Below, one piece after another: positions 1-52,641 of a DNA stretch of 64,000 nt (its first letter is position 1; the number at the start of each line of letters is the position of its first letter). A model generated the notes under the pieces. It was not told the origin of the DNA. It worked only from the letters and a program-made list of their open reading frames with translations, and ran no database searches. The stretch is from the NCBI GenBank assembly GCA_041694835.1, contig JBGFRZ010000082.1:52266-116265 (forward strand), written 5' to 3'. Source of the stretch: Ignavibacteria bacterium (lineage in GTDB: Bacteria > Elusimicrobiota > Endomicrobiia > PHAN01). Made by a program: the position numbers and the translations under genes.

Positions 1-1511
1 ACAATGCCTTTTTCAATTTTTTCCTTGTTCGCTTCGTAAATTTTGTTCCATTTATCTTTTGTGCCGTAATACCTCTGCGAAATCGACTGCAACGTTTCTC
101 CGGGAAGCACCTTATGCGTTCTTGCGGCAGGTGGCGGCGGTGTTCTTTCAGGACGTCTGCGCATCTCCTCGGAAATAACAGACGGACTGGAGACCTCTAC
201 ATTTAAAATATCGGTAATGTTTTTTTCGGGAGTTTTTGTAAATTCCGCCGGTGAGGGCGGGGTTGATATTAAAACCGGAATAATCTCTTTTTTCTGGACA
301 GGCGCATAAGTGGATATTTCAGCGGTAAACTCCGTTAGAAGTAAGTCACCAGAGGCGGCCGGCCCCGATGAATATAGGGGAACTTCTAACGGGATAAATT
401 GTTTTTCTTGCACGAGAGCGGGTTCAGGCGGTGGTATCGGCAACTTTCTGTGTTCTTCGAATTTGACGGGATGGAATGTTTCCCGCGTTTTAACGACATC
501 TTTTTTTCTTTCACCGAAATAAACCGAAATACCGAACATATGACTCCCCGACATTTCAGACATACCCCCTAAAGGATACAACATCGCATAGTCGAAAGAA
601 ATATTTTTAATGTTCATTCCGAGACCCGCTGTAATCCTCCTGTAATTATTGCTGCCAAAATTGAACCCTGTCCTCAAAACAAGTACTTCGTTTAACAATT
701 TCTTTTCGACTCCCAAATTGACCGTCTGCCGTTCGGACGATATTACATAATCGGCGGCAAGCAGAAAATCTTTTTCCTCGTATGACGCTCCGAATACATT
801 TCCGGCCGGTCTCTTGTATTTTTTATTATCTTCGCTTTCAATCTCCGTGTGATAACCAAATTTTATATTGCCGAACCGCAAAATAACTCCCAATGGAAAA
901 GACATGAAATCTCTGTTATACGGTTCTCTAAATACGGGGTCGACTTTTTGATAATTATCTCGTATGGGAATTCTTATCAAATAATTTTTGACGCCAGCGC
1001 CGACGAAAACAAAATTATGCGGGTTCCACGAAAAGTTGAGCGCATAAATTTCTTCAGAATAATAATCACCGAGGGAAAGACCGCTGTAGCCTGCGCCAAA
1101 ACCGAAATTTCTAAAAGGTATTCCGAAAGAAAAAGAAGCGTTTGATATATTGCTCCTGTCATCTAGACCAATATGCAGTTTGCTGTAGCCAAACGAGAGA
1201 GTCGTATTTCTAAGAGACGAAACGCTCGATGGATTAAAAAACACAACTCCCGCATCCTCCGTCATAGAAGCCGCTGCCATACCGAGAGAACTTATGCGAG
1301 CGAAAGCAGGTTTTTCCTCGAAAGCCGCATAAAGGCAGACAATAGGCAATAGGCAGTGGGCAATAGTAAAATATAGGCAATAGGCAATAGGCAGTAGGCG
1401 GTAGTAGTTGGCGGTTGGCGATTTGTGATATGAATAACGAGCCACAAGCCACGAGCCACGAGCCACCAATAAACTTTTAAACTCTTGAACTATCCTCTGT
1501 CTTTTATTCAT
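1..1511 (-). CDS. FadL/OmpP1/PorV-like outer-membrane beta-barrel with C-terminal LysM domain (3' end runs off window start; start codon uncertain: ATG at 1511 or internal ATG ~1285/1264)
   Basis: Hand translation of the minus strand is open from 1511 to position 1. The N-terminal motif ARISSLGMAAAS..EDAGVVFFNPSSV matches the FadL-family signature SxGLGxA..ADDA...NPA. The same motif occurs in the ORF at 15423-17057. The C-terminus HKVLPGETLQSISQRYYGTKDKWNKIYEANKEKI is a typical LysM. It is not in the ORF track because there is no stop codon inside the window. Confidence 0.5.
   Translation of the reverse strand, partial: MNKRQRIVQEFKSLLVARGSWLVARYSYHKSPTANYYRLLPIAYCLYFTIAHCLLPIVCLYAAFEEKPAFARISSLGMAAASMTEDAGVVFFNPSSVSSLRNTTLSFGYSKLHIGLDDRSNISNASFSFGIPFRNFGFGAGYSGLSLGDYYSEEIYALNFSWNPHNFVFVGAGVKNYLIRIPIRDNYQKVDPVFREPYNRDFMSFPLGVILRFGNIKFGYHTEIESEDNKKYKRPAGNVFGASYEEKDFLLAADYVISSERQTVNLGVEKKLLNEVLVLRTGFNFGSNNYRRITAGLGMNIKNISFDYAMLYPLGGMSEMSGSHMFGISVYFGERKKDVVKTRETFHPVKFEEHRKLPIPPPEPALVQEKQFIPLEVPLYSSGPAASGDLLLTEFTAEISTYAPVQKKEIIPVLISTPPSPAEFTKTPEKNITDILNVEVSSPSVISEEMRRRPERTPPPPAARTHKVLPGETLQSISQRYYGTKDKWNKIYEANKEKIEKGI
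1290..1470. repeat. imperfect 7-8 bp periodic low-complexity repeat (ataggca / ggcaatag units, then agccacg units) overlapping the predicted signal-peptide coding region of the FadL/LysM gene
   Basis: The DNA shows aggcaataggcaataggcagtgggcaatag...ggcaataggcaataggcagtaggcggtag and gagccacaagccacgagccacgagccacc. On the minus strand this reads as a hydrophobic LLPIAYCLYFTIAHCLLPIVCLYAAF stretch. Confidence 0.6.
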
Positions 1512-1529: not shown

Positions 1530-4500
1530 TTATCTCGCCACCACGACTGTGCCGTTTTTTATTTTATCTCCGACTTTCAACTGATAGATGTAAACTCCCG
1601 TCGGAAGCGCTCCGCCCGATTGTTCTTTGCCATTCCAAACCACCCATAAATCGCTCTTTTTCTCCATCTCTGCCACTTTATAGCCGCTCAAATCAAAAAT
1701 CTCACCCGTGACACTTTCGGAGAAAGGATTTTCGAAAGTTACATTAAACTCATCGTTTATCCCATCGCCGTTGGGTGTGAAAACTTTCGGCCATGCGTTT
1801 AAAATTTTAAACTCCACCGCTCTTTGAAGAGAGCGAACCCTGAACTCCCCCGAGTATCTCGCATCTGCAATTAAATATGCCCCCAAATATCTCCCGCCAA
1901 GATTGACCCACTCCACTCCGTTAAACCAGAAGACAGCATAACTGGCGACTTCTGAAGGTGTCTTTGAAACTGCGGGCGACGAAGCAGTGAGGTTTTCAAG
2001 TTGAAATTTAAGAGTCAGAGGTTTTTTGAATCCAGTTTTTATCAATGCCCCTTCCCTATCCATTATTTCAACCATATACGAGAGTTTCGTCTTCTGGTCG
2101 TCGGGTGGGTTTTCTTTCTTTGTAATTTTAACGGAATAATCCGGTCTTAAAATTTCGGGTTCAGCAACAATTTGGAATTTGCCGTTTTCCGAATGATGAA
2201 TGTTTTGATTTGGTTCGCCTGCCACCAATACTGCCGATGGCTCGCCAAGGACTCCAAGTGTATTTATTGCTCTAACCATATAATAGATATTAACGTCAGA
2301 GACCAAAGCGAGTGTCAATGTGCTAGAAGATGCGGGGACAAATGCCACATGGTTAGAAGTAAACAAGTCGTCAAATCTATGGGCCACGTAAACCCTGAAG
2401 CCTGCGAGGTTTCCTGGAGAGGAACCATCTGTATTTTTAATGGGCGCAGTCCACGAAAGGACTATATCTTTTGTATTTGGGATATCAAACTTAAAGTTCG
2501 TTGGAGGCAGGGGTCTTGCTGAAGGGTTTGTATAAAAACTCCAGTCAGTTGTTGGCGTAGAGCGACTCGTTTTATCTACTGCATAAACCCGCCAGTAATA
2601 GGTGCTGTCGACCAAGAGGGTCTTATCGAGGGGGACTTGATACGACAAAGAAGCAATATTTGAAACAACTTTTCTTGAAGAAAAATCGGGCGATGTCGAA
2701 TGCCATAACTCATAAACCACAAAGTCTTCAGGGTCTGGGTCAAAAGAAGATGACCACGAGAAATTAGGCATAAGCGTTTCTATAATGGCCCCGTTGGCTG
2801 GGGAAAGCAGAGAAAACGCCGAAGGATTTTCTTCAATTGAATTTACCTTGAAACTTAAAACACTTGACCATCTCTGATTGCCCCATATATCGCAAGCAAC
2901 TGCCCTCCACCAATAAGTTCCGTTCTCTTTAAGTTCCAGGGTTATATATGAAGTGGTTGTAATTCCGACTGAAGACACAAAGACATTGAAATTTTCATAA
3001 GACGAATAATGGACATCATACCAGAATGTATCCGATTCGGGGTCTGAACTTGGTGACCATATTAAAGTTGGCGTTCTAGTCGAAATTATCCCTGATGGAC
3101 TAACAGGAACAAAAGGGTTTGGTGGCAGATTGACTGCAATAAAACTTCGCGATAGTGTATCTGTTGAACCCGTAAGTGTTGAATGCGCCGTAACATACCA
3201 GTAATATGTCGTGTTGTTGGACAGGTCACTTTGAAATGTATATGAGGTAATATATATCGGAGAAATCTGAGTTTTAATGGCAAAAAGCGAATTCGTGGAA
3301 TAAGTCAGAGTGTAATAATACACATAATCATAAGGGTCAGGGTCTGTTGTTTCCTGCCACAAAAGAGTGGGCTTGAGATAACTATAAAAAGAGCCATCCA
3401 GTGGCGAAAGCAGAGAAAAAGCTTTTGGATTTTCTGAAGTTGCATCAACTATAAAAAACCAGGTTGAGGAATGCGTCATGGCATTAAAGGAATCAATAGC
3501 AATAACATACCACCAATATGTAGTGTTTTCATTTAGCGATGTAGTGACCGAAAAAGGTGGGGAACTAATTCCGACTGAAGAGACAAAAATAGAGAAATTT
3601 GAGACGGAAGAATAAAAGATGGAGTAGGTGACGGTGTCCCCATCCGGATCGATTGCACTTTGCCAACTTAAAGACAGCGTCTGGGTTCTAATTATTCCCG
3701 AAGATGCGAGCAAATTGAAACTGCCCGGCGGAAAATTTACCGCTTTTACCGTAAAACTTGAAATTTCCGATTGCGTCGTCAGGTTATCCGGAGACGACCT
3801 TGCGACAACTCTCCACCAATACACCGCATCTTCCTGTAAATCTATCAATTGATAGTAGGTGGTGAGTATATCGAAAATGACTGGCGGGGCTGGAGTGGCT
3901 GTGGTTGAAGAGTAAGAAATTCCGTAATATACAGTATTGCCGGGGTCTAAATCAATAGCGATGCTCCATCGAAGTGTCGGTGATGATGTAAAAATCATTG
4001 TGCCGCCCGTGGGCCAGAGAAGTGAAAATGGCTGAGGCGGTTCATTCACAGTATTTAATCTAAAACTGCCGGTTGACGACGAAACGGTTTCGCGGCCCGT
4101 CGTGTCTCTTGCATGAACCTTCCAGAAATACCTGGCGTTTTCAGTTAAATTCCACCACGGCGACCAGGATAACTGATTAATGCCCGACACTCTGGTAGAA
4201 ACATTTGATTCAAAACTGATAGATGTAGAAATATAAACATTATAAACAACAAAATCTGCAGGGTCAGGGTCGGAAGAAGCGTTCCACCAAAGCGTCGGCT
4301 GAAGGGTACCGGTTTCTATGGTGTCATTTATCGGCTGAATAAGCGAAAAAGCCGTCGGCGATTCGCTCGTCGCATTTACAACAAACTGAGGGGTGCCGGT
4401 TACTCCCAATGAAAGTAGTCCTTCTGAATCCCTCGCATAGACACGCCAGTAGTATGTCGTGTTTTCGTTTAGCGCGGGGGTTGTCCAATTTGTCTGGGTT

Positions 4501-5168
4501 ATATTCTCCACAACGCTTTTTGGCGAAAAATTGCTTGCGGTTGAATACCAAAGGATGTAACTCGTTATACTGTCGCCGTAGATATTGTCTGTGCCGACAG
4601 GAAATCCACCGGCATTTGTCACATCGCCCCATGCCAGAAAGACCAATGAAGAAAAAACAACTGTTGTCGGGGTTCCTGTGTAGTTGTAGCCACTTACATT
4701 CCCAGGTGAGTTGTTCTGAGTCGCCGACTGGGGCTCAGGACTTGAAGTGTCAAGCAGCGACCAGTTGATGTTGTCCGTCGAAGATTTTATCGCAAAAAAA
4801 TATGTTATATTATTTACAAGAGATGAAACGACTCTCATCTCCGAGTTGCTGGAAGAAGTTGAAGTCGAAAATTTTATCCTGTAGGGGTAAGAAATCGATG
4901 TGGAGTTGTTTGTCCAGTCGGCTTCTGCGACTATTACCCGGTAACTCGAAACTCTTACCTCGTACCATTGAGGCGCTCCTTCCGGCCCACCTGGAGCTGT
5001 CCATTGAAGGGTTATGTGTCTGAAGCCGCTTGATCTTATTGAGAGATCGGTGACCTGATTTGGAACAGCGTTCAGGGTCGTTAATCCAAATAAAAAAAGT
5101 ATCGTCGGCCAAAAAAAACGAACGGGGCGAAACTTATCGATATCCGACAGTTTTGTCCGATGTTTCAT
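1530..5168 (-). CDS. large secreted surface protein (1212 aa): signal peptide, >=8 Fn3/Ig-like ~100-aa repeats, C-terminal T9SS type-B sorting domain (gliding-motility-associated CTD)
   Basis: Recurring repeat motifs PTLxWxxxxDPDxDxxxYxxxxSTxxxF appear throughout. The last ~85 aa, FTPNGDGINDEFNVTF...WNGK...GVYIYQLKVGDKIKNGTVVVAR, match the TIGR04131-type FxPNGDGxND CTD. The N-terminus has a hydrophobic signal-like segment. Confidence 0.6.
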   Translation of the reverse strand: MKHRTKLSDIDKFRPVRFFWPTILFLFGLTTLNAVPNQVTDLSIRSSGFRHITLQWTAPGGPEGAPQWYEVRVSSYRVIVAEADWTNNSTSISYPYRIKFSTSTSSSNSEMRVVSSLVNNITYFFAIKSSTDNINWSLLDTSSPEPQSATQNNSPGNVSGYNYTGTPTTVVFSSLVFLAWGDVTNAGGFPVGTDNIYGDSITSYILWYSTASNFSPKSVVENITQTNWTTPALNENTTYYWRVYARDSEGLLSLGVTGTPQFVVNATSESPTAFSLIQPINDTIETGTLQPTLWWNASSDPDPADFVVYNVYISTSISFESNVSTRVSGINQLSWSPWWNLTENARYFWKVHARDTTGRETVSSSTGSFRLNTVNEPPQPFSLLWPTGGTMIFTSSPTLRWSIAIDLDPGNTVYYGISYSSTTATPAPPVIFDILTTYYQLIDLQEDAVYWWRVVARSSPDNLTTQSEISSFTVKAVNFPPGSFNLLASSGIIRTQTLSLSWQSAIDPDGDTVTYSIFYSSVSNFSIFVSSVGISSPPFSVTTSLNENTTYWWYVIAIDSFNAMTHSSTWFFIVDATSENPKAFSLLSPLDGSFYSYLKPTLLWQETTDPDPYDYVYYYTLTYSTNSLFAIKTQISPIYITSYTFQSDLSNNTTYYWYVTAHSTLTGSTDTLSRSFIAVNLPPNPFVPVSPSGIISTRTPTLIWSPSSDPESDTFWYDVHYSSYENFNVFVSSVGITTTSYITLELKENGTYWWRAVACDIWGNQRWSSVLSFKVNSIEENPSAFSLLSPANGAIIETLMPNFSWSSSFDPDPEDFVVYELWHSTSPDFSSRKVVSNIASLSYQVPLDKTLLVDSTYYWRVYAVDKTSRSTPTTDWSFYTNPSARPLPPTNFKFDIPNTKDIVLSWTAPIKNTDGSSPGNLAGFRVYVAHRFDDLFTSNHVAFVPASSSTLTLALVSDVNIYYMVRAINTLGVLGEPSAVLVAGEPNQNIHHSENGKFQIVAEPEILRPDYSVKITKKENPPDDQKTKLSYMVEIMDREGALIKTGFKKPLTLKFQLENLTASSPAVSKTPSEVASYAVFWFNGVEWVNLGGRYLGAYLIADARYSGEFRVRSLQRAVEFKILNAWPKVFTPNGDGINDEFNVTFENPFSESVTGEIFDLSGYKVAEMEKKSDLWVVWNGKEQSGGALPTGVYIYQLKVGDKIKNGTVVVAR

Positions 5169-5716
5169 ATCTTTATATGTGTGTAATTAAGCCATCTTAT
5201 GATTTTTGAGAATACGCTCTTTTTCTCATTCCTCACAATCTTGAGTGATGTGAGTTTAAGGTTTAATCTTCTTATCTCGTCCTCATACTGCTTGAGAGTA
5301 TTTTTATGGCCGCTTATTGCGACCGATTGAGTATCGATAATATCTTCTTTTTTGTGCAGCACAAGCAAGAAATCTTTTCGCCAGTTTGCGAATTCTTTCG
5401 CCTGAACGGAAATCTTCGCCAACTCGTTTTTCAGAGTTTCTATCTCGTCGCGAAGTTTTTCGTTTTCTTCCCTTATGCTGTTTTTCTCATCCTCAAGAAG
5501 TTGCATTTTTTGATTGCCATCCTCCGCCATCCGAGATAAAATCTCATTCTTTTTGTTTAAATCAGATCTCAGTCTTGTGATTTCGCTCATATACAGATTG
5601 TTTTTCTCTCTGAACAAAGATGATTCTGGCATTTCACCACGACAACCGAATTCATCCTCGAGGCGCTCTATCTTTTTAAGAAGCTCTGAAACTTTAGTTG
5701 CTCTTTGGCTTGCCAT
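5165..5716 (-). CDS. coiled-coil protein (183 aa), E/K/L-rich heptads
   Basis: Track ORF. It overlaps the downstream gene by 4 bp (ATGA) and the upstream gene by ~23 bp, suggesting translational coupling within the operon. Confidence 0.4.
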   Translation of the reverse strand: MASQRATKVSELLKKIERLEDEFGCRGEMPESSLFREKNNLYMSEITRLRSDLNKKNEILSRMAEDGNQKMQLLEDEKNSIREENEKLRDEIETLKNELAKISVQAKEFANWRKDFLLVLHKKEDIIDTQSVAISGHKNTLKQYEDEIRRLNLKLTSLKIVRNEKKSVFSKIIRWLNYTHIKI

Positions 5717-8700
5717 CGTTTCTCCTTATCTTGATTATGGGTTCGTTCAGGTTTTCCCAGAACTTCTTAAACGACGATGCCTTCTTTCCTTCTGAAAACT
5801 CTCCCTCGCCCTCTTTATCGACAAATTTCCTAATCGCCTTCTTGAGTTCATTTATTTCCTCGTCCTTAATTGAGATTTCAATCTCACGGGCTTTGTATTT
5901 TTTTGTTATTTCATCTATAATTTCTTTCAGCTCAAATACATCCGAGGTTGCGATTTTGGTCGCTGAATTTTTCAGATTTTCATAAGCGTCCGATATCTCT
6001 CTCTTCTGAGATTCCATCTCCTCAATTTTTCCGCGATACTCGCTATTTAAAAGCGATATATTTTTCTCGAGGTTCTCCGCTCTCGCTTTTAGTACCGCTC
6101 TTTCCTCTTCTTTCGCCTTTAACTCGGAATCTTTCAAAGACAGTTCTTCCTGTGCGGTCTTTATTGAGTGCTCCATTTCGGCTCTTATTTCACTTAACTC
6201 TGAATTCAGGGCGGATTTCATCTGCGATTTTTCTTTTAAAAGGGTTTCAATCTGATTTCTGTATTTCTCCTCCATCTCCCTTTGAATTTCCAATTCCTTC
6301 CGCCTGTAGTCGAGATGAAGCCTCTCGATTTCTCCCTCTTTCGAAATGATATCGGCTTTAAGTCTGTCTTTTTCATCGTACCACTTTGTGAGCATCTGCT
6401 CATAATTTTTTTTAGACTCTTCGACCTCTTTCCTAAGACGTTCGAACTCAAAGGCATTTTCCATCTCCACTTCCCTTCTCACTTCAAGCTCCATCTGCTT
6501 CCATTCGGCATTCATATTTCTTATCTGGTTTTCTTTTAGAACAATATCCTGTTTGATGTTGTTTGCTTCTTTTTGAGCCGATGAAATCTCCTCTCTGAGT
6601 TTAACGGTTTCTATCTGATAGTTCTTCTTCTCTAATTCAAGAGAAGTGATTTTTCTTTCAATCTCGCCTTTCTCAATCCTAGAATTATTCAGAATCTCCT
6701 GCTCTTTCATCAACTGCTCGGCGAGCTTTCTGTTTAACTCTTCCTTCTGTCTGGCGAATTCATTTTGGACTTCCCTGATTCTTGCGTCGGCATCTTTTTC
6801 TCTGAGTAAAATCGCGTGATTCAGATCGGACACCGCTTTTCTTGCATGTTCAAGCTCAAAACGAATGTGCTCCGCCTCTTTTGAGAGCGCATTACAGCGC
6901 GACTCTTCCTTTGAAAAACTCTCTATCAGACGATGAATTTCCCCGTTAAGCTCCGATATTTTGCTTTCATATCCGCCGATAGTTTTTGATTTTTCCCTCT
7001 CAAATTCTTTTGCAAGGTTTGCGACTTCTCTTTCCGCATCTCGCTGAATATTTACAACATCATTCCTGAGCGACGTGATTTTGGCCTCACTTTCGCTCGT
7101 CAACCTTGATATAGTCTCCTGATAATTCTTTTCAATTTCCTTTATCCTGACTTCGGCCTCCCTCTCTTTTAGCTCGATAGCGTGATTGCTCTCCGCTATC
7201 TTATGACTTGCGTTATCGAGCTCAAAAGTTATCGATGCGATTTTCTGCGAGTATGAATCGTTTTTAGATGATAACTCGACTATATGACTTCTAGAGTCGG
7301 TCAGATCTTTCTCCATGATTTTTTTGTCCTGTTCCAACCGCAAACTCCTCATTTCAAACTCTTTCATTCGCGCCGCGTACTGTTGCATCTGATTTTCATA
7401 TAAAGAGTCACTTCTCTGTGCGTCCTGTCTCAGGATAGAAATTTTCTGCTCATACTCCGCTTCTTTCTGTTCAAGCCTCTGCAACCATTGGGCTTCGGCG
7501 ATTCCGAGTTGAGCTTCCTTTGAGCTAAGTTTTGAGTCGTATTCGGCCGAAAGGGTTCTCAATTTTTCTTCGTAATGCCTTTTAATGTTTTCGAGTTCGG
7601 TTTCCTTCAAACGGACGGCGCTATTAAAATCTCTTTCGTGATCGGCGAAATATACCTTCAGAGATTTTATCTCCTCTTCCTTCTTTTGTATCTCAAAACC
7701 AGATTCCTGGATTTTTTTGTTAAGCTGTTCCTTGTAAAATAATATCTCCCTGAGAAGTTTGTCCTGTTCTGTTTTAGTCTTCCCCTGGAAAAGCGCAAAC
7801 TGCGTCTTCAGGAGAAAATACTCCTTCTCTTTCGCTTCGGCACATTTGACGAGTTCGTTTTTCTCGGTTCTCATCTTTTCAATAAGATGGACGAGCTTCT
7901 CGCCCTTTTCTTTCTGCTCCCTTAATTGAACCGAAGACATTGCAATCTGCGCCTTTATCGCAAGAAACTCTCTATCTCTTTCTTCAAGTTGTTTCAGGAG
8001 AATATTTTTTTCTTCCTGATTTTTTGCGACAGATTCCTTCAAGTCCCTCAAAGCGGCGTCTCTGTCGGATTCCATCCTTGAAATCCTGTTTTCAAAGTCG
8101 TCTTTTTGTTCAAGCAGATTTTTCTCGAATGCAAGCTTCAGTTTCGAGAGCTCTTCTTCTTTATTTCTCAGAGATGTGGACCATCCAAGTTTTTCTTCGT
8201 GCCATTTTCTCTCGAGATCTTTTATCTTCAGGGAAAACTGTTCTTCAATCTCTGTCTCCTGGAAGTCCCTCTGCTGCATCTGTGTCTTTAACGTCTGAAC
8301 CCATGTTTCTCTCTCTTGAGAGAGTCTTTCCTCAAGTTCTTTTATCTTCGATTCGGCTTTCGCTTTCGCTTCCTCTATTTCCTGCTCTCTTTTTTCCCGC
8401 CTGAGGCGTTCTTGAATGTCTTTTATAGATTCCTCGACTTTGGAGGCCATCGCTTCTTCTTCCTTAGACTTCATCATCTGTAAGAGAAGTTTTTCCCTTT
8501 CCTGCTGAAGTTGATTCTGAAGTTCTATTATCTGCTGTTGAAGTTTGGTGGCGGACGCGTCGGAGGCGGGGGTGTCCAAGATGGGCAGATGCTGTGCGGG
8601 CGGCTTCAGAGGCAGCCCGGTCCTTTTGGGGAGTACGGGCGAGCCCGAAGATGGTTTCGGGGGCAGCGGTAGATTTGGTTTTCCTCCTGCGTGTTGACCT

Positions 8701-8741
8701 TTCGATGGCAAAGGCGGAAGTTTGGGTTTTTTATCTTCCAT
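5694..8741 (-). CDS. giant coiled-coil protein (1015 aa) with proline-rich N-terminus (PKLPPLPSKG...PLPPKPSSG)
   Basis: Track ORF. The protein is an almost continuous E/K/L/Q heptad coiled coil. It overlaps the upstream 1616-aa gene by 11 bp. Confidence 0.5.
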   Translation of the reverse strand: MEDKKPKLPPLPSKGQHAGGKPNLPLPPKPSSGSPVLPKRTGLPLKPPAQHLPILDTPASDASATKLQQQIIELQNQLQQEREKLLLQMMKSKEEEAMASKVEESIKDIQERLRREKREQEIEEAKAKAESKIKELEERLSQERETWVQTLKTQMQQRDFQETEIEEQFSLKIKDLERKWHEEKLGWSTSLRNKEEELSKLKLAFEKNLLEQKDDFENRISRMESDRDAALRDLKESVAKNQEEKNILLKQLEERDREFLAIKAQIAMSSVQLREQKEKGEKLVHLIEKMRTEKNELVKCAEAKEKEYFLLKTQFALFQGKTKTEQDKLLREILFYKEQLNKKIQESGFEIQKKEEEIKSLKVYFADHERDFNSAVRLKETELENIKRHYEEKLRTLSAEYDSKLSSKEAQLGIAEAQWLQRLEQKEAEYEQKISILRQDAQRSDSLYENQMQQYAARMKEFEMRSLRLEQDKKIMEKDLTDSRSHIVELSSKNDSYSQKIASITFELDNASHKIAESNHAIELKEREAEVRIKEIEKNYQETISRLTSESEAKITSLRNDVVNIQRDAEREVANLAKEFEREKSKTIGGYESKISELNGEIHRLIESFSKEESRCNALSKEAEHIRFELEHARKAVSDLNHAILLREKDADARIREVQNEFARQKEELNRKLAEQLMKEQEILNNSRIEKGEIERKITSLELEKKNYQIETVKLREEISSAQKEANNIKQDIVLKENQIRNMNAEWKQMELEVRREVEMENAFEFERLRKEVEESKKNYEQMLTKWYDEKDRLKADIISKEGEIERLHLDYRRKELEIQREMEEKYRNQIETLLKEKSQMKSALNSELSEIRAEMEHSIKTAQEELSLKDSELKAKEEERAVLKARAENLEKNISLLNSEYRGKIEEMESQKREISDAYENLKNSATKIATSDVFELKEIIDEITKKYKAREIEISIKDEEINELKKAIRKFVDKEGEGEFSEGKKASSFKKFWENLNEPIIKIRRNDGKPKSN

Positions 8742-11700
8742 TTTTCCCTCCTGATTTGTTATTTATCTTGTTTGTTAATTCCTTCTCAAAGCTAATCAGA
8801 TTCTCGTTTTTAGGTTCTATGGATATCGCCTTTTTTATCGCCATAAGAGCGTCATCCAGTTTGTCTGTGTTATAAAAGCATAAGGACATATACTGCTGTG
8901 CTTCCGCGCTGGATGGATTATTCCGAGTGAACTCCCTCAGTATTTCCAAAGACTCGGAGTAACTGCCTTGTTCGCAAAGTTCTACGGCTCTTTTCAAAAG
9001 CATCGGTCTGACTTCTTTTGGTGTCTGTCCATAAGAAACCATCTTTCCCATAAAGTCGTCGGCGAATTTCTTAAGATTTTCCCTCATCTCCCGTCGACGA
9101 ATGCTTTCTGCCATTATTTCTTTTGTAGTCATTTGCATACCGGCCTCGAGCACATCGAGTTGATTCATCTTAAGTTCAAGCAGTTTTGTGAATCTATCTT
9201 TTTCCGACATTATAGAGTTTTCAAGTTCTGATATTTCCCGAACCATAGAGATAAGTTCGGTGTTTTTATCCTCATAAAGCTTTAACTGAGCGGATATCTC
9301 CGGAGAATCCTTCATATAAGAGGCTCCCGCATCCGCAAGCTCTTTTCTTAAATTCTCTATGGCTTGAGATGAGAGTTTATGCTGCGACTTATTCTTATCG
9401 ATTGTCTCTTCCAGAACTCCTTTTAGTTCATCAATATATTTTTGGAGCTCTTCTCCGCGCTTTTTTGTTTCATTTTGCAGACGCTCATTTCTCAACTCAA
9501 GTCGTTTTGAGAGGGTGGTTATCTTTTCTTCTTCCATATAGATTTTGTTTTTAGACTCTGACAAATAATCGTTGTATTTCCTGAGAAGTTCCGTCAAATC
9601 TTTTTCGAGCTTTTTCAAGAGGTTCTTGCTTTTTTTCTCATGCCTCAATCGCGCAGTCTCGAACTCGGACTTCGAAAGTGCCACTTTGAGTTTTCTGGAT
9701 TCTATTTCCTTTTCAATCTCTCCGATTATCTTTGCCGAAGAGTTCTCGCTTTCTTTCAACTTACTTTCCCAAAGATTCACTTCGGCGAGGAGCGTTTCTC
9801 TCTCTTTAAGAAGCTTCGCTTCCTGAAGGACCCATTCGGATTCGAGGCGATTTTTTTCATCGTCATATTTTGCCTCTAGTTCTCTTTGCGTTTTTATTTT
9901 CCCGGAAATCGTTTCCCCGGTTTCCTTCTTTAACTTTTCCATTTCAGACGACAACTTTTCCATCTCTCGCTCGATCTTTTCTTTCTCGGCGAGGTGTTCT
10001 TTCGTTATTCGTTGCTCTTCGTCGGTCACATAGGATTCCCATGTTGTTATTTTGTTTCCGAGCTCTTTCATCTCTTCTTCTTTTTGCGATTTTAAATTGC
10101 TCCAGTAATCGCCTTGCTCTCTGATAGTCTTTTGAAGAGTTGATATCTGCTCTTCAAGTCTTTTATTCGTATCAGTCCAGGTTGTCTCTTTATTCTTTAG
10201 TTCATTTTTTGTCTGTTCAAGAGATGCCTGTGATTTATTGATGAACGCATTCAGCTCGCTCGTCTTGGAGCAAAGCGCGGTTTTGCCCGCATTCTGAACT
10301 TCCAAAAAGTTGTTTTGGAGCATCGTCAGTTCTTCGGCCAGAACTTTTCTCTCGTTTTCATAATTTTCGTTTTGCTTTTTTTCCTCCTCGTGCCATGATT
10401 TTTCTCTTAAAGCCATCTGCGTCTTCAGGACATAAAGTTGCCTGTCCAGAATCCTTACTTCATCGCGATTCGTTCCGACTAGAGCTTTTAGCTTATGTTC
10501 TAACTCATCCCTCTTCCTATCAAGCGAATGTTTCTCGGCGGCATAATTCTGTGATGAGTTTTCAAACTTTGTTTTCATTTCATCTTCCAATACTTTTAGA
10601 TTCTGCTGTCCAACTTTCAGTTTTTCTTCAACTTCGGATAACTCTTGCTCCTGCTTGATTTTTATGGCTTTCATCTGGTTTTCAAGATTTTCTTTCCTTT
10701 TTTCAATTCTTTTGACGAACTGCTCATGCGATTGAAAATATGAATCTCTATTTTTTGTGTAATTATCCTCCTGTTCCTTCAATTTCGCATTTAGTTCCTG
10801 AATCTGCTGCTGCCTTGTGGCAACCATCCCCGGATGTTTTTCTTCCAACTGCGCAAGTTCCATTTCATTCGATGTAATTTTGGAAATCAGCAGTTCTTTG
10901 ACTTTATTAAACTCGCTTTCCATATGATTCAACCTGGCTTTATACTCCTGTTCAAACCTCAAGTGGTCCGACTTAAGCTTTTCAATTTCACGCTTTTTCT
11001 CCGCCAGCAACTCCGCATGGCGGGATTTCATCTCTTCCGATTCATTTTCAATCTTTTCTATTTCCTCATTTATGAGCTTTTTTTCATTTTCATTTTCTAA
11101 CTCAAGAATTTTTATTTCTTTTTCATATTTGTGAATGTTGGTTTCACGAGATGCGTTTAAAAAAGTTATCTTGTTATCGAACTCTATTAAGATATCAGCA
11201 TGTTTTTTTCTTGTTTCATCAAGTTTTTTTGAAGATTCTTCGAGTTTTTTTCTGACCAACTCAAGCTCCGCGCTTATTATGCTCTCCTTTTCTTCTATCT
11301 CATATTTATTTGCCGAAATTAAATCATTCACTTTTTTACTTATCGCTTGTATATGTCTTTCGGACTCCGAAATTTCACTTTCGCATTTTTCTTTAAAAAA
11401 ATTAAACCCGACTTTCGTCCTTTCAAGCGACTCTATCGCTATCTTCTTCTTGCCTTCAAGTTCAAAGCGGGTGGCGTCCAAATTTTTTTGTAACACCGCT
11501 GTCTTTTCCAAAAGAACTTTTTCTAACTGATTGTTCTCATCGTTTTTCGCGCTTACGGTCTCATCAAATCTCTTTTGTTCTGAAATCACCACACTATTCA
11601 ATTCCTCTATTTTAGCCTCAATACTTCCTTTTTCTTCTTTTAGTTTTACATTAAAACTTTCAAGCGCAAGAGAATGATTTTTCTTTTCATCTTCCATCTT

Positions 11701-13581
11701 TTGCATCAAAGACTGATGGACATTTTCAAGTTCCTTCATGTTTTTTGAATGTTCTTTTTCAAGCGATATTTTTTGAGAGTCAATCTCGTCTATGTCGGCC
11801 TTTATTGAATCGATTTCGGCCGAGAGTTTATCGACTGACTGATGGTATCTACTTTCAAGCATATTTTCCTGATGGGCAAAACGTTGCTTCAAACTTAAAT
11901 AATCTCTTTCCTTTTCTGCCATCTTCTGCTTAAAATCCATCTCAAGACGCGCTTTTTTACTTTCAGCGACCTTCAGCTTTTCTTTATAAGGTTCAACTTC
12001 CACAAAAAGTTTCTTTTTAGCGTTCTCAAAAGACCTGGTGCTTTCCAAAAGTTCCGCTTCCACTGAATTTTTTGCGGCTTCAACCTGGGATTTCTTTTGA
12101 GAAAGAAGTGAAGAGTACTCCGTCTTTATTTTCGAAAAATCTTCCTGGAACTTTTGATATTTATCCTCGATGAGTTTTTTCTCCTCGGAAAGAATTTCAA
12201 TTTGATGTTTATGTTGAAGATTCTTCTGTTCCTGGTTCGATTGCCAATCGTTTTTGAACTTTTCCATCTCTTCGTACTTTCCGGAGAGTTCACTTTGATA
12301 TTCTATTTTCTGGTTCAAAACTTCTTTTTCAAGATCAGTACATCTCAAAGAGATTCTCTTTTTTTCATTTTCAATATTTGTTTTGTATTTTTCTATTTCT
12401 GCGTTTTTCTCCCTTATCTTTATTTGAGCCTGGATTTTAATGTCTTCTATATCCTGATCCGCGACTCTTATCATATTCTCCCATTCGGATTTTTCCTGCT
12501 CATATTTCTGATGAAGCTCCTTGAGCTGTTTTTCAGCCAGAGATTTTGCCTCTTTGAACTCGTTGAAACGTTTTTCGCGAGCGGAACTTTCCTGCGTTTC
12601 CTGAAGCATCATGTCAATTTTTAGTTTATTGAAAGCATCTTCCCTCTCTTTCAATAGTTTCTCGTATTTCTCCTTTTCGGAAAGCGACTCCCTTTCCATC
12701 TCACTCATCTGAGCCACTAACTTTTCTTTTAAATCCTTAAGCAATATCTTTTTCGCATTCAGTTCCTGCTCATATATTATCTGACGCTGTTTCAAAGCCG
12801 AGCTGAATGCAAGCAATCCCTCTTTTTTATCGTTATAAATTTTCTGGAAGTTTGCTCTCATTTCGGAAAGATTTTTTTCAACACCATTCAACTGATTATT
12901 GTAATTGCCTTCTAATTCTTTTTTCTCCCGATGAAATTTTTCCTCTTCCTGCCGGGACTGGTTGACTCTGAGGGATATCTGTGCTTTTAATGCCACGATT
13001 TCCTCTTCCCTGCCTTTCAGTCTTGTTACAAATTCCCCTATTTCCTGCTGTGCTTTTTTCTCGAAGGCAAGAAGCTGACTTTCTATCTCTCTTAATTCCT
13101 GAGTGGATGAAATTATCTCTTTTTCATCTTCGGCTTTTTTTTCGTTTTCCCTGGTTTGCAAATTTACTTTTGTTTCGTCTATCTCGGTTATGATAGCTCT
13201 GATTTTTTGACCCCACTCTTTATCCTCTTCTTCTATCTTGCGCTCAACCCTTTGCAGTTCGTCATTCCATTTTTTTCTAAGCGAATTTATCGAGTCCTGA
13301 TGAAGTTGCATGTTGTTTGAAAGTTCGAGTTCAACAAGTTCAAGATGGATGGAAAGTTTTATTTTTTCATCTTCTTTCTCTTTTTCTTTCTTCCTGTAAT
13401 TTTCCCGCTCAACTTCGAGCATCTTTTCTATGTTTTCAAGTTGCTCACGCGCCGTTTTTTTTATGCTTTGTAAATCATGGCTGGCGGTAAGCTCTATCTT
13501 TTTCTCGTCGCACTCAATATCCGATGTCGCTTTTTTTTCGGCGACTGGTTCCTCTTTGTGTTTGATTAGCCACTTCCACAT
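8731..13581 (-). CDS. giant coiled-coil protein (1616 aa) with C-terminal TPR-like repeats
   Basis: Track ORF. It reads as ~1500 aa of SMC/myosin-tail-like coiled coil followed by LEILREFTRNNPSSAEAQQYMSLCFYNTDKLDDALMAIKKAISIEPKN (TPR). Confidence 0.5.
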   Translation of the reverse strand: MWKWLIKHKEEPVAEKKATSDIECDEKKIELTASHDLQSIKKTAREQLENIEKMLEVERENYRKKEKEKEDEKIKLSIHLELVELELSNNMQLHQDSINSLRKKWNDELQRVERKIEEEDKEWGQKIRAIITEIDETKVNLQTRENEKKAEDEKEIISSTQELREIESQLLAFEKKAQQEIGEFVTRLKGREEEIVALKAQISLRVNQSRQEEEKFHREKKELEGNYNNQLNGVEKNLSEMRANFQKIYNDKKEGLLAFSSALKQRQIIYEQELNAKKILLKDLKEKLVAQMSEMERESLSEKEKYEKLLKEREDAFNKLKIDMMLQETQESSAREKRFNEFKEAKSLAEKQLKELHQKYEQEKSEWENMIRVADQDIEDIKIQAQIKIREKNAEIEKYKTNIENEKKRISLRCTDLEKEVLNQKIEYQSELSGKYEEMEKFKNDWQSNQEQKNLQHKHQIEILSEEKKLIEDKYQKFQEDFSKIKTEYSSLLSQKKSQVEAAKNSVEAELLESTRSFENAKKKLFVEVEPYKEKLKVAESKKARLEMDFKQKMAEKERDYLSLKQRFAHQENMLESRYHQSVDKLSAEIDSIKADIDEIDSQKISLEKEHSKNMKELENVHQSLMQKMEDEKKNHSLALESFNVKLKEEKGSIEAKIEELNSVVISEQKRFDETVSAKNDENNQLEKVLLEKTAVLQKNLDATRFELEGKKKIAIESLERTKVGFNFFKEKCESEISESERHIQAISKKVNDLISANKYEIEEKESIISAELELVRKKLEESSKKLDETRKKHADILIEFDNKITFLNASRETNIHKYEKEIKILELENENEKKLINEEIEKIENESEEMKSRHAELLAEKKREIEKLKSDHLRFEQEYKARLNHMESEFNKVKELLISKITSNEMELAQLEEKHPGMVATRQQQIQELNAKLKEQEDNYTKNRDSYFQSHEQFVKRIEKRKENLENQMKAIKIKQEQELSEVEEKLKVGQQNLKVLEDEMKTKFENSSQNYAAEKHSLDRKRDELEHKLKALVGTNRDEVRILDRQLYVLKTQMALREKSWHEEEKKQNENYENERKVLAEELTMLQNNFLEVQNAGKTALCSKTSELNAFINKSQASLEQTKNELKNKETTWTDTNKRLEEQISTLQKTIREQGDYWSNLKSQKEEEMKELGNKITTWESYVTDEEQRITKEHLAEKEKIEREMEKLSSEMEKLKKETGETISGKIKTQRELEAKYDDEKNRLESEWVLQEAKLLKERETLLAEVNLWESKLKESENSSAKIIGEIEKEIESRKLKVALSKSEFETARLRHEKKSKNLLKKLEKDLTELLRKYNDYLSESKNKIYMEEEKITTLSKRLELRNERLQNETKKRGEELQKYIDELKGVLEETIDKNKSQHKLSSQAIENLRKELADAGASYMKDSPEISAQLKLYEDKNTELISMVREISELENSIMSEKDRFTKLLELKMNQLDVLEAGMQMTTKEIMAESIRRREMRENLKKFADDFMGKMVSYGQTPKEVRPMLLKRAVELCEQGSYSESLEILREFTRNNPSSAEAQQYMSLCFYNTDKLDDALMAIKKAISIEPKNENLISFEKELTNKINNKSGGKNGR

Positions 13582-13596
13582 ATTATTCCTCCGCTT

Positions 13597-15411
13597 TTAT
13601 TTTCTTGATGCCTCGAGTTTTATCTGTTCAATAAAGTTTGACAGCTCCGTGTCATTTGGGTTTATGTTTAACACCGCTTCATAATTTGCAATCGCTTCGT
13701 CATATCTTCCGAGAGCATAATATGAAGCGGCAATATAACTGTAGGCGTCGGTCAAAGTGTTGTCGATTGAAAGGACGTACTCAAGATAGCTTATGGCATC
13801 CTCATAGTTTCCCGCTTCATAACTGGAGAGTCCTGCCTGATAGTAATCCGCAGCGTCACCTTCCGAAGGAGCGGCTTCTTCGTCAACAACCTCTTCACCC
13901 TCAAGAGCGCTGCTTTTCGGCTTTTCTCTTATAAAGATTTTACCGTCATCTTCAAGTTTTCTTATGACATCCATTATTTTCTTTCTTCCTTCTTCTGTCT
14001 GTAACGGCGTTACGGATTGGGTGTACTGCATTTCTTCTTGAATAAGTTGGACCGCGTTAGACGACATGTTGGCAAAAAACTTATTTACCACATCCTGAGG
14101 CACTCCTTTGAGTGAGCGGGCAAGAAGTTCCGAATTTTTCAAATCTGGAAAGTTAAGTATTGTCTGCATCGTCTGATCCGTGAAGTTCTTAATGTCATCA
14201 AACTTCAATATAAACTTTCTGACCCTGTCGTAGAGTTCCGGTTTTTCGTTCTGTAGATAATCCAGTATGTTGTCCCTTGTTACGTTGTCAACCTGATCAA
14301 GCACTTTCAAAAGATGCTCTATGCCGCCTATTAGGAAGTCTATCTTTTCTTTTATGTCGTCGTCTATCTTCATTACCTTATCCCTCGTCATCTGTCTTAT
14401 GGTCGCCATCTCTATGGCCACCTGCGACTGAACCTGCGCCGAAAGGCTGAGAAGTATCTCTTTGACATGCTCGGGTTTAAGATAACTTATTACGAGAGCT
14501 ATTATTCTTGCGCTTTCTTTCCTTATTAAATATATAAGTCTTTTAAGATTTTCGTCATCTACATAGTGAAACGGTTTGTACTTTTTTTTCTCCTCTTCCA
14601 GCGCTTCAAGCTCAGCCGCAGAAAGAGCGCCGCCTCCGCCTCCTCCTTCACCGCCTTCTGGCTCCCCCTCGGGGTTTTCGAATTTTGAATCCACGGTAAC
14701 TTCTGTTCCGCCCTTTTCCCTCATCGTTTTTACATATGCACGGAAAAAGCCAGCAAGAGGACCGAAAAGAAAAAATAAAAGAAGAAATGCTATAACAAGA
14801 GGTATCAAAACAAGCGGCTTCAGCAGCTCTTCAAAAAATCCCGTCGTGAATTTTGTTTTCTTAAAATCTATCCGGTCACCGCGCTTTTGATCTATTCTGA
14901 GAGCGGAAGTAATAGCATCTTTTACGGCTTCAAGTTTCGACTCGGGAACTTTTTCATCGTGCAAAACAGTCACTATCTGTTTTTTCAGAGCAATTTTGAC
15001 CTCGACAGTTATTTTTTCCTGCTGGCCGGCCTCTTCTTTCGATTCGCCGACTTGATCCGCTTGAGAAACCGCTCTGGGCGCCGGAACACCCGGCAGCAGA
15101 TACTCCACCTCGCCTATCGGCTTCTTTTTTTCGGCCTTTCTTTCCCTGACGAAGGTTTTTCTGGTTATCGTATCAAGACCGAATTCGACATCGACTATGG
15201 CTATCGCTTTATCCGGTCCAAGTATCCTGTCAAGGATGTCTTTCTGAACGTACTCCGTCTTTTCTTTTTCGTACTTGAGTTCATGTTCTATCAGTGAGAT
15301 TTCCGCAGACTGCGGGGTCATCTGTCCATAAAGATAAACAAAAGAAGAAAGAGCCAGTAAAAGTGCCACCGCGCTTTGTTTCAAATTTTTAAGCTGTTTT
15401 AATTTTTTCAT
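13597..15411 (-). CDS. membrane protein fusing FliF/YscJ-like periplasmic ring-building motif, TM helix, FliG-like middle+C-terminal domains and C-terminal TPR repeats (604 aa)
   Basis: N-terminal signal/TM anchor MKKLKQLKNLKQSAVALLLALSSF. The periplasmic segments AIAIVDVEFGLDTITRKTFVRERK and ITVEVKIALKKQIVTVLHDEKVPESKLEAVKDAITSALRIDQKRGDRIDF resemble FliF ring-building regions (compare SARVHLAMPKPSLFVREQK and VTVTLEPG...VVHLVSSAVAGL). A second TM helix is PLVLIPLVIAFLLLFFLFGPLAGFF, followed by a Gly-rich linker. Then ESARIIALVISYLKPEHVKEILLSLSAQVQSQVAIEMATI ... DIKNFTDQTMQTILNFPDLKNSELLARSLKGVPQDVVNKFFANMSSNAVQLIQEEMQY..EEGRKKIMDVIRKLEDDGKIFI follows the FliG/MgtE-N fold pattern. TPR repeats lie at the C-terminus. 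Confidence 0.5.
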   Translation of the reverse strand: MKKLKQLKNLKQSAVALLLALSSFVYLYGQMTPQSAEISLIEHELKYEKEKTEYVQKDILDRILGPDKAIAIVDVEFGLDTITRKTFVRERKAEKKKPIGEVEYLLPGVPAPRAVSQADQVGESKEEAGQQEKITVEVKIALKKQIVTVLHDEKVPESKLEAVKDAITSALRIDQKRGDRIDFKKTKFTTGFFEELLKPLVLIPLVIAFLLLFFLFGPLAGFFRAYVKTMREKGGTEVTVDSKFENPEGEPEGGEGGGGGGALSAAELEALEEEKKKYKPFHYVDDENLKRLIYLIRKESARIIALVISYLKPEHVKEILLSLSAQVQSQVAIEMATIRQMTRDKVMKIDDDIKEKIDFLIGGIEHLLKVLDQVDNVTRDNILDYLQNEKPELYDRVRKFILKFDDIKNFTDQTMQTILNFPDLKNSELLARSLKGVPQDVVNKFFANMSSNAVQLIQEEMQYTQSVTPLQTEEGRKKIMDVIRKLEDDGKIFIREKPKSSALEGEEVVDEEAAPSEGDAADYYQAGLSSYEAGNYEDAISYLEYVLSIDNTLTDAYSYIAASYYALGRYDEAIANYEAVLNINPNDTELSNFIEQIKLEASRK

Positions 15412-17093: not shown

Positions 17094-17462
17094 TTAATGT
17101 ATGACTCCAATTTTTCTTAAAGCCACTATCTTCCCGCCATCGACGGAAACCACACAGATATATCCGCCCTTGGCGACGTAATGACCGTTTTCGTCGCGAC
17201 CGTCCCACAGGATTGTATCTCCAAAAAATTCGAGATGCTTGACGGGGCGGCCAAAAAGATCGAAAATTTTTACCGCAATTCCAACGTCGGTCTGATTTGA
17301 TTTTTTTACAAGGATGCTTGTGGAAGTTTTTCTCGAATCGAACGGATTGGGATAGTTTGAAAGAAATATGTCAGAAGATGATGCGACGGATGCCGTCAAC
17401 AAAAGAATTGATGAGGCGAAAGGGATAAGTAAAAGATAATTTAAAAAGTTGATGTGCTTCAT
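17094..17462 (-). CDS. small secreted protein consisting of a signal peptide plus T9SS type-A C-terminal sorting domain (FlgD-Ig-like CTD) only (122 aa)
   Basis: LSNYPNPFDS...VKIFDLFGRPV..L....ILWDGRDENGHYVAKGGYICVV...KIVALRKIGVIH matches the TIGR04183/PF13860 CTD pattern. It is the first gene of the operon. Confidence 0.5.
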   Translation of the reverse strand: MKHINFLNYLLLIPFASSILLLTASVASSSDIFLSNYPNPFDSRKTSTSILVKKSNQTDVGIAVKIFDLFGRPVKHLEFFGDTILWDGRDENGHYVAKGGYICVVSVDGGKIVALRKIGVIH

Positions 17463-17971
17463 AAATTGCCTTCGGTAACCCGGCCGCCATAATCTCGCAT
17501 TTTGCTTGATGTTAGGCCCGTATCCTGACCTATAGTCAGAATGACCCGATTCAACATCGGGATCGGCTTTGCGTCCTCCGGTTTCCCGGAGTTTGCCATT
17601 TATCGGACAATCCTTACGTTTCCATCTCCGCCACGGCGGAAGGGGGCTATCAAAATAAAAATGCTACCGAACTTCCGCCCGGTAGCATAAAGATAGGGGG
17701 TCCTAAAACTTGTTGCAAACCACTACAACCGCAACCGCTAACAAATTAAACTTACTACACCTTCTCTCGGTAGCCCGGCCAGCTCCCCCGACATTATGTC
17801 GGGGGCATCGCTCCGATTTCCCGAAACGATTTTGATAGCCCCCTATCTTTAGCTCCGCGGCTTTGCGTCCTCCGGTTTCCCGAAGTTTGCCTTTATCGCA
17901 ATATATATATAATAAAATTTATGACATTTGTCAAGGTTTTTTTAACAGCCGAAATTCTGCCAAAAATTGCA
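17463..17971. other. structured 510-bp non-coding leader/element: two 41-bp direct repeats (17565-17605, 17859-17899) flanking ~250 bp with perfect hairpins and a 15-bp inverted repeat
   Basis: The direct repeat ggctttgcgtcctccggtttcccg(g/a)agtttgcc(a)tttatcg occurs twice. gggggctatcaaaat at 17641 pairs with attttgatagccccc at 17826. The hairpin cccccgacattatgtcggggg has a 9-bp stem and gctaccgaacttccgcccggtagc a 7-bp stem. No ORF >=60 aa lies in this region. Confidence 0.5.
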
Positions 17972-26900: not shown

Positions 26901-26903
26901 TTG

Positions 26904-49826: not shown

Positions 49827-49835
49827 AAGTTTGAA

Positions 49836-52636: not shown

Positions 52637-52641
52637 TAAGC

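Follow-up and report, generated by a model that had tools for sequence, protein, structure and literature searches.

The gene closing an operon headed by tandem c-di-GMP riboswitches, cut by the edge of the 64-kb stretch of DNA analyzed here (the window, 64,000 nucleotides), encodes a predicted outer-membrane barrel with a C-terminal LysM domain. We interpret its product (hereafter barrel-LysM), with a probability of roughly 0.6, as a cognate anchor or shuttle of the PorP/SprF type that carries its own PorE-like tether to peptidoglycan. One chain would thereby do the jobs of both PorP/SprF and PorE of the Bacteroidota: its 14-stranded PorV/PorP-type barrel would receive and hold the C-terminal sorting domain (CTD) of the Fn3/Ig protein encoded upstream, and the LysM at the end of a flexible linker would bind peptidoglycan. 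The outcome would be a static adhesin fixed to the cell wall, with the riboswitches at the operon head setting its expression.

Six-frame reading of the window revealed an open frame of 503 codons without a stop running from position 1511 to 3 on the minus strand, whereas each of the other five frames over 1511–3 holds 18–27 stops, making a chance open frame of this length very unlikely; the uninterrupted frame of the original prediction thus survived re-inspection. The frame is still open at the window edge and the orthologs P0001 and P0002 extend about 14 residues further (...EKGxLKxGxxxxIP), which indicates that the gene lacks its last ~14 residues and agrees with the truncation proposed for it. 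A search of metagenome contigs with an exact 50-nt stretch, aimed at extending the sequence past position 1, gave no match. Two plus-strand ORFs (310–522 and 849–1145) were taken as shadows of this gene. Its start codon is ambiguous (ATG 1511, TTG 1469, GTG 1466 or GTG 1445). The translation and start candidates delimit a leader and signal peptide comprising residues 1–62 (1326–1511, minus strand), with cleavage predicted between ...CLYA and AFEE because the signal peptides of homologs end just before [YC][AG]AFED. Tandem heptanucleotide repeats encode the signal-peptide region, with period-7 repeats at 1340–1399 and 1437–1466 specifying its hydrophobic core. P0004, considered as a fourth homolog, was rejected: its similarity is confined to this repeat-encoded leader and leaves the barrel unmatched.

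Residues 63–335 (507–1325, minus strand) form an outer-membrane barrel of FadL/PorV fold that includes a helical hatch at its N-terminus; AlphaFold models it as a 14-stranded FadL fold in which the hatch fills the lumen. The domain carries the FadL/PorV-type N-terminal motif ARISSLGMAAASMTEDAGVVFFNPSSV and aligns over the whole barrel with the product of the gene at 15423–17057 (26% identity, 325 columns, E 3e-9), bearing out the proposal that it is a second barrel of this fold sharing the N-terminal signature of the first. Profile searches with TIGR03519 (PorP), PF03349 (FadL/Toluene_X) and PF01476 (LysM), suggested as checks alongside the original prediction, were run together with related models. 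Barrel-LysM aligned end to end with PF11751 (PorP_SprF; profile positions 17–271 of 273), its score being 21.9 bits when the leader is included and 22.5 when it is left off, around a cut-off of 22.3, and the barrel, at 273 residues, equals that Pfam model in length. It scored far under the cut-off with TIGR03519 (16.6 bits against 90.55), and under it with the PorV/PorQ model NF033709 (44.6–45.1 bits against 90) and the PorQ model NF033711 (~19 bits against 220); no match was obtained with the PorV model NF033710 at E 0.1 or better, nor with PF03349 at E 0.01 or better; a likeness to FadL was seen at the fold level only. The family comprises ~630 strong members (E 1e-30 or better); among the 96 closest, 95 matched NF033709, 39 TIGR03519, 25 PF11751 and only six PF03349. 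PDB searches found no PorP/SprF structure or sequence, so that PorP versus PorV affinity was judged from HMM scores alone. By these scores, barrel-LysM is better described as carrying a divergent barrel of the PorV/PorQ/PorP superfamily, lying between families by sequence, than as a substitute drawn from a different family.

The original prediction had placed a FadL-like barrel in the position occupied by PorP/SprF in Bacteroidetes. The position, following a type-B CTD gene, stood, but the contrast between FadL and PorP/SprF was overdrawn, since the PorP-like proteins also belong to the FadL family of barrels and have 14 strands (PMC9143113) and barrel-LysM aligns with PF11751 over its full length at threshold. 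The FadL fold also raises the alternative of an uptake channel for hydrophobic compounds that acquired its LysM by chance, which we regard as highly improbable: PF03349 goes unmatched here and in nearly all of the 96 relatives, the compact barrel falls about 150 residues short of FadL/TodX in length and, unlike these, has much shorter loops without long surface extensions, and its gene context, also different from theirs, includes no lipid or aromatic catabolism.

The barrel is followed by a disordered, proline-rich linker (138–506, minus strand; residues 336–458; 15% Pro; pLDDT 39–61) that differs in length and sequence among orthologs, and by a LysM peptidoglycan-binding domain (3–137, minus strand; residues 459–503) cut short at the window edge. 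Both would be located in the periplasm; because a barrel with an even number of strands has both termini on the periplasmic side, the 123-residue linker could reach the cell wall. The PF01476 score of 17.6 bits falls below the cut-off of 20.9 because the window edge severs this copy of the domain, which nevertheless scores 29 bits with NF008399, is modeled at a pLDDT of ~95 and in complete orthologs exceeds the Pfam cut-off with 23.8 to 37.8 bits. A family profile searched against the PDB also matched LysM chains (e.g. Kbp, 7pvc_A, E 3.8e-10). The C-terminal LysM of the original prediction is hence upheld by both domain match and expected fold, and on this basis the domain probably binds peptidoglycan. 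Among the 152 closest family representatives at 50% identity, a LysM tail is present in at least 76, and the tails of other members are OmpA_C or TPR; all three are probably periplasmic anchoring or scaffold modules.

OmpA and intimin/invasin likewise are single chains in which a flexible hinge joins a membrane barrel to a peptidoglycan-binding domain in the periplasm. OmpA has eight strands and an OmpA_C domain, whereas the 12-stranded barrel of intimin comes with an LysM at the N-terminus and, in the same polypeptide, a passenger displaying Ig-like repeats on the surface. Unlike in intimin, the displayed protein of barrel-LysM is a separate gene product, which would be recognized via its CTD. 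The layout shared with OmpA, and the interchangeability of LysM, OmpA_C and TPR tails within the family, would also suit a general outer-membrane-to-peptidoglycan staple of purely structural function, incidentally adjacent to an adhesin gene. We consider this unlikely given its genomic setting: at least two paralogs reside in one operon of this genome, the operon is probably under c-di-GMP control rather than housekeeping, and the place directly after a CTD gene is kept in most loci despite low sequence identity, as detailed below.

The gene immediately upstream (1530–5168, minus strand) encodes a Ser/Thr-rich surface protein of 1212 aa that has a signal peptide, Fn3/Ig repeats and Pfam matches to fn3, Ig_Rha78A_N and CHU_C. 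Its C-terminal type-B-like CTD (1554–1793, minus strand; residues 1126–1205) scores 45.1 bits with PF13585 (CHU_C; cut-off 27) and marginally with TIGR04131 (34.6 bits against 35), above the 16.6–16.7 bits obtained with type-A CTD models. Only 18 nt separate the two genes, confirming that barrel-LysM lies directly downstream of an Fn3-repeat, type-B CTD gene. The order of CTD cargo followed by barrel-LysM recurs in nine of ten loci with a readable upstream gene, among proteins of just 25–36% identity. The upstream gene carries a significant CHU_C match in the window, in L001, L003, L057 and L059, and on the contig encoding P0002; CHU_C or Por_Secre_tail matches in L005, L060/61 and L062–64 are weak or sub-threshold. 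In the exception, L004, the gene that comes after the CHU_C gene encodes a paralogous barrel, and the LysM-bearing barrel adjoins no cargo gene. The weak upstream domains and the L004 arrangement count against an anchor function, as do the scores below the TIGR03519 and NF033709 cut-offs, the marginal PF11751 score and the Elusimicrobiota host, with no SprA or PorKLMN in the window. A metagenome scan for further loci with the family alignment returned 600 pattern matches, none of which was confirmed. In L001 and L055, the gene after barrel-LysM encodes a ~690-aa coiled-coil/membrane/beta-propeller protein.

Barrel-LysM thus resembles PorP/SprF, the shuttle and anchor of type-B CTDs within type IX secretion systems (T9SS), in its 14-stranded FadL-family barrel of comparable size (~270–290 residues), in the full-length threshold alignment with PF11751 and in its position immediately 3' of a type-B CTD cargo gene. 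It differs in its TIGR03519 score, in its host, in the absence of T9SS core genes from the sequence examined and in its C-terminal linker and LysM, a tail for which we found no description on PorP/SprF in the literature searched. With respect to PorV, the shuttle for type-A CTDs (PDB 6H3I/8GL6 chain F), barrel-LysM reaches only half the NF033709 cut-off, its barrel is ~100 residues shorter and it bears the additional LysM tail; it is also paired with a single type-B-like cargo gene, whereas PorV serves many type-A cargoes. A functional parallel may be the complex of PorE (PG1058) with PorP and PG1035, in which a barrel holding a type-B CTD is linked to peptidoglycan, as we propose for barrel-LysM. 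PorE is a separate lipoprotein (TPR, beta-propeller, CRD and OmpA_C-like domains), however, whereas here the LysM is fused to the barrel itself.

SprF is known to bind SprB, and cargoes with a porE-like gene in their operon have been proposed to be static (PMC9143113; PMC12618676). A recent model has PorP-like barrels holding type-B CTD cargoes, with the PorE-peptidoglycan tether making these cargoes static rather than mobile. If our interpretation is correct, the fusion of a PorP-like barrel to a wall-binding domain would provide independent, Rosetta-stone-type support for this model, and the pair would offer a simple two-gene system for testing CTD recognition and surface anchoring.

The GyrB encoded in the window shows 100% identity to a protein from an NCBI MAG, and its named close relatives are all Elusimicrobia, placing the window in the Elusimicrobiota and not in the Bacteroidetes. 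Among species-representative genomes, barrel-LysM has its closest full-length relatives in Elusimicrobiota MAGs. The 64-kb window showed neither SprA nor PorKLMN of the T9SS translocon or motor, the examined flanks of related loci held no T9SS core gene, and the literature searched reports no T9SS translocon or motor for this phylum. The recurrence of the pair in the Elusimicrobiota, together with the abundance of barrel-LysM proteins among family representatives, suggests that the CTD-barrel sorting module reaches beyond those phyla whose type IX secretion has been investigated.

Alternatively, in a phylum lacking the SprA translocon, barrel-LysM would itself be the translocation pore in a two-partner-like scheme, recognizing the CTD in the periplasm, threading the cargo out and staying bound to both cargo and wall. 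The lack of T9SS core genes in the window and examined flanks, the strict pairing of one cargo per barrel and the presence of two CTD-then-barrel pairs in the operon would fit such a pore. The modeled barrel, however, has its lumen filled by the N-terminal hatch, its homologs PorV and PorP act as shuttles and anchors rather than as channels (PMC9143113; PMC12618676), and the 64 kb of genome examined leave room for a translocon encoded elsewhere, making a pore function improbable.

The remainder of the operon contributes several components to a broader picture. Upstream of the cargo gene lie genes for three Glu/Lys/Leu-rich predicted coiled-coil proteins (5165–13581, minus strand) of 183 aa (5165–5716), 1015 aa (5694–8741) and 1616 aa (8731–13581), the largest with a C-terminal TPR; their gene order is kept in L001. 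Composition and hydrophobicity analyses identified no signal peptide or membrane segment in these proteins and, apart from the TPR, they yielded no Pfam or NCBIfam family and no PDB relative. The next gene (13597–15411, minus strand) encodes an inner-membrane FliF_C/FliG-like protein with TPR, identified through Pfam, TIGR00207 and PDB matches. Its periplasmic part is FliF_C-like, a membrane segment lies at residues ~191–215 and the cytoplasmic side comprises FliG middle and C-terminal domains (FliG_C 86 bits, FliG_M 50 and YscJ_FliF_C 23.6; TIGR00207 115 bits; PDB FliG 1lkv, E 2.7e-30). It is preceded by the gene for the first barrel of the operon (15423–17057, minus strand), a PorV/PorQ-family protein scoring 140.5 bits with NF033709, above the cut-off of 90, with C-terminal TPR repeats and additional matches to TPR_2 and UPF0164. 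Directly before this barrel, the first gene of the operon (17094–17462, minus strand) encodes a 122-aa protein with a signal peptide and a single domain with faint similarity to T9SS CTD or FlgD Ig-like domains (NYPNPF...WDGRDENG), seen in weak Pfam matches to FlgD_ig (E 0.005) and Por_Secre_tail (E 0.03).

Taken together, these genes tentatively suggest a further reading, on balance doubtful, in which barrel-LysM would be the outer end of an undescribed, c-di-GMP-controlled envelope-spanning apparatus in Elusimicrobiota. Its parts would be the two T9SS-style CTD-then-barrel pairs, one barrel TPR-tailed and the other LysM-tailed, the inner-membrane FliF/FliG-like protein, the three large cytoplasmic coiled-coil proteins and, in relatives, the coiled-coil/membrane/beta-propeller protein. 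Such an apparatus would link the Fn3/Ig adhesin on the surface with both the cell wall and a cytoplasmic scaffold without a canonical T9SS translocon or motor, and would imply that the CTD-barrel recognition module predates, or exists independently of, the T9SS of Bacteroidota.

The operon leader (17471–17900, minus strand) contains two c-di-GMP-I riboswitch aptamers in tandem, at 17765–17900 and 17471–17607, both on the minus strand. Their Rfam scores exceed the gathering thresholds (RF03167, 60 bits against 59; RF01051, 45.2 against 35). A terminator-like hairpin (17661–17688) lies between the two aptamers, and 9 nt separate the end of the second one from the operon's first ATG.

The barrel-LysM gene occupies the minus strand of positions 1-1511 as an open frame of 503 codons without a stop, beginning at an ATG at 1511, 18 nt past the stop codon of the upstream gene, and leaving the window at position 3. 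Since each of the remaining five frames contains 18-27 stops over the same stretch, this frame is not open by chance, and a check for interruptions found all 503 codons intact. The gene is truncated at the window edge, as originally noted; orthologues extend ~14 residues further (...EKGxLKxGxxxxIP), and the target therefore lacks only the last strand of its C-terminal domain. The start codon is uncertain (candidates ATG 1511, TTG 1469, GTG 1466 and GTG 1445), and comparison with homologues suggests that the signal peptide ends at ...CLYA, immediately before AFEE. Period-7 tandem repeats inside the ORF at 1340-1466 encode the leader (VARGSWLVAR...LLPIAYCLYFTIAHCLLP), and the frame would shift if their copy number changed by a non-multiple of three units. 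P0004, which is FliG-like, unrelated and encoded in a different NCBI genome, has a nearly identical leader. Period-7 repeats are numerous in the window, with differing units and mostly intergenic, and occur elsewhere at 18867-18887, 21488-21597, 25446-25532, 26821-26915, 28342-28367, 32005-32047, 32355-32443 and 35669-35692.

An AlphaFold2 model generated from an alignment of 96 relatives (mean pLDDT 79) resolves four minus-strand segments: a leader with signal peptide (residues 1-62; 1511-1326), a barrel mostly above pLDDT 90 (63-335; 1325-507), a linker with 15% proline and pLDDT of about 40-60 (336-458; 506-138), and the expected C-terminal LysM domain at pLDDT about 95 (459-503; 137-3). 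The modeled barrel has 14 strands with an N-terminal helical hatch inside it, and its top Foldseek match is PorV in a substrate-bound complex (chain 8gl6_F). The FadL/PorV-type N-terminal signature proposed to be common to both barrels of the operon was recovered, with ARISSLGMAAASMTEDAGVVFFNPSSV in the target aligning with AKSLGMGKAFFAVSDDASATYWNPAAL in the barrel at 15423-17057, and the similarity spans the whole barrel (26% identity, 325 columns, E 3e-9).

Curated cut-offs do not place the target firmly in any named family. For PF11751 (PorP_SprF), whose cut-off is 22.3 bits, the score lies at threshold, with 21.9 bits for the complete ORF and 22.5 once the leader is removed, and the alignment covers profile positions 17-271 of 273. 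The best NCBIfam match is the PorV/PorQ family NF033709 (about 45 bits, cut-off 90), and TIGR03519 (PorP) aligns over its full length at 16.6 bits (cut-off 90.55), next to BamG (21 bits) and PorQ (19 bits). Among the 96 closest relatives, NF033709 matches 95, PorVQ2 74, TIGR03519 39, PF13729 (TraF_2) 35, PF11751 25 and PF03349 (FadL) six. Taken together, these matches place the target barrel in the PorV/PorQ/PorP superfamily, with a FadL fold. The original description of the barrel as FadL-like thus holds for the fold and fails for the family, as a Pfam search of the target returned no match to PF03349. This missing match, the compactness of the barrel and an unsuited gene context make a FadL-type uptake channel highly improbable.

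A search with the barrel profile against 1.84 billion representatives returned 633 proteins at E <=1e-30, rising to 11,140 when the limit was relaxed to 1e-3. LysM was matched by 46 of the 96 closest relatives, TPR by about 29 and OmpA by two, and, of the 152 closest representatives, 76 proved in a local search to end in LysM. The combination of barrel and LysM is therefore a common architecture and turns up in metagenomes often enough to make its presence here less surprising; the literature searched yielded no description of it.

The upstream gene (1530-5168, minus strand), hereafter the cargo gene, encodes a Ser/Thr-rich protein of 1212 aa that carries a signal peptide, repeats of the Fn3 and Ig_Rha78A_N types and, at its C-terminus, a CHU_C domain. 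Its sorting domain (CTD) reaches 45.1 bits with PF13585 (cut-off 27) and 34.6 with TIGR04131 (cut-off 35), compared with only about 16.6-16.7 bits for type-A models, confirming a type-B Fn3 protein directly ahead of the target. Among the ten loci with a readable upstream gene, the same order is seen in nine, including the window: CHU_C is found upstream in L001 (1199 aa, 28.8 bits), the P0002 contig, L003 (Elusimicrobia GWA2_62_23; 30.5 bits), L057 (35.1 bits), L059 (32.5 bits) and, weakly, L062-64, while L005 (Endomicrobiia) has a 1916-aa Fn3/Ig protein with CHU_C at 18.3 bits and L060/61 a 1688-aa Fn3/Ig protein with Por_Secre_tail at 19.5 bits. L004 differs in that no cargo gene adjoins its LysM barrel, and a CHU_C gene instead precedes a paralogous barrel. 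Because proteins of these loci share only 25-36% identity with the window protein, the linkage is not accounted for by common descent of the contigs. The porP/sprF-like genes likewise lie directly downstream of their own cargo genes (PMC9143113; PMC12618676), a position that the target was proposed to hold and does hold. This conserved pairing also speaks against a generic OmpA-like envelope staple, which we consider unlikely. In many of the related loci (L002, L004, L005, L059, L060, L062) the pair is followed by a gene for a histidine kinase, in many cases accompanied by one for a response regulator.

The target is the last visible gene of a tightly packed minus-strand operon: the first two genes lie 36 nt apart, and all other gaps or overlaps are <=23 nt. 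The operon opens with a 122-aa protein (17462-17094) bearing a signal peptide and a domain (NYPNPF...WDGRDENG) with weak resemblance to a CTD or a FlgD-Ig domain, directly followed by the PorV/PorQ-family barrel with a TPR tail (17057-15423); these two genes possibly form a second CTD-then-barrel pair. In the product of the third gene (15411-13597), a periplasmic part resembling FliF_C is combined with a membrane segment, the middle and C-terminal domains of FliG (E 2.7e-30 to Thermotoga maritima FliG) and a TPR. This FliG-like protein sits in a non-flagellar context, between the PorV-like barrel and giant coiled-coil proteins, and no further flagellar genes were seen among the annotated window ORFs. 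Three Glu/Lys/Leu-rich proteins follow (13581-8731, 8741-5694 and 5716-5165; 1616, 1015 and 183 aa); apart from a terminal TPR they match no family, they lack signal peptides and membrane segments, and they look like cytoplasmic coiled-coil scaffolds. The cargo (5168-1530) and barrel-LysM (1511-3) genes end the operon. Gene order is the same in L001 (where the counterparts of these three proteins have 1605, 1122 and 251 aa), and barrel-LysM is followed there by a gene (11801-13885) for a ~690-aa protein that has a coiled coil at its N-terminus, a single membrane segment and, at its C-terminus, a domain resembling a beta-propeller with a weak Vgb_lyase match. A copy with 59% identity follows P0005, another homologous protein, in L055 (1767-3845); a window equivalent would fall past position 1. 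Upstream of the operon lie tandem minus-strand c-di-GMP-I aptamers at 17900-17765 (RF03167, 60 bits) and 17607-17471 (RF01051, 45 bits), both above Rfam gathering scores, with a terminator-like hairpin between them (17661-17688) and 9 nt from the second aptamer to the first operon ATG.

SprF binds SprB, and cargoes with a porE-like gene in their operon have been proposed to be static, those without one mobile (PMC9143113; PMC12618676). In light of this literature, the target most likely combines the PorP/SprF and PorE roles. We favor, at a probability of roughly 0.6, a barrel that holds the cargo CTD and a LysM that ties it to the wall. The barrel would receive the adhesin-like upstream protein by its CTD and hold it there, and LysM, through the flexible linker, would fasten the complex to the cell wall, leaving the cargo a surface protein that is static, anchored to the wall and produced in response to c-di-GMP. 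In an even-stranded barrel both ends lie on the periplasmic side, and LysM is therefore predicted to be periplasmic. Of this picture, the analysis establishes the barrel, the linker, the LysM domain and the conserved gene pair; that the barrel binds the cargo, that LysM binds the wall, and how the cargo is exported are inferred. Export by the target barrel itself, in a phylum possibly without SprA, is doubtful given the hatch-filled 14-stranded fold. That the whole operon encodes an unrecognized envelope-spanning adhesion or motility apparatus, with CTD-barrel modules working without a canonical type IX system, is a tentative suggestion. The barrel-LysM finding is of direct relevance to the PorP-PorE anchoring model.

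The window GyrB is 100% identical to a protein encoded on a 126,657-bp NCBI contig. All named proteins among the best 120 GyrB relatives belong to Elusimicrobia, Elusimicrobiota, Endomicrobiia or Endomicrobiales (closest, HGW-Elusimicrobia-1 at 78% identity), and the three full-length target relatives in species-representative genomes are all from Elusimicrobiota MAGs, indicating that the host is not a Bacteroidete. The papers searched contain no account of type IX secretion in Elusimicrobia. The target represents a barrel of the PorP/PorV superfamily that has a wall-binding domain fused to it and a CTD cargo as its partner, outside the phyla studied for type IX secretion. The presence of yidC, mnmE, dnaA, gyrB and gyrA marks the window as a chromosomal origin region; these genes, together with nearby ones for an ATPase resembling PilB of type IV pili and for a member of the TIGR03545 family, lie at 44774-59746 (plus strand) and 37134-38849 (minus strand).
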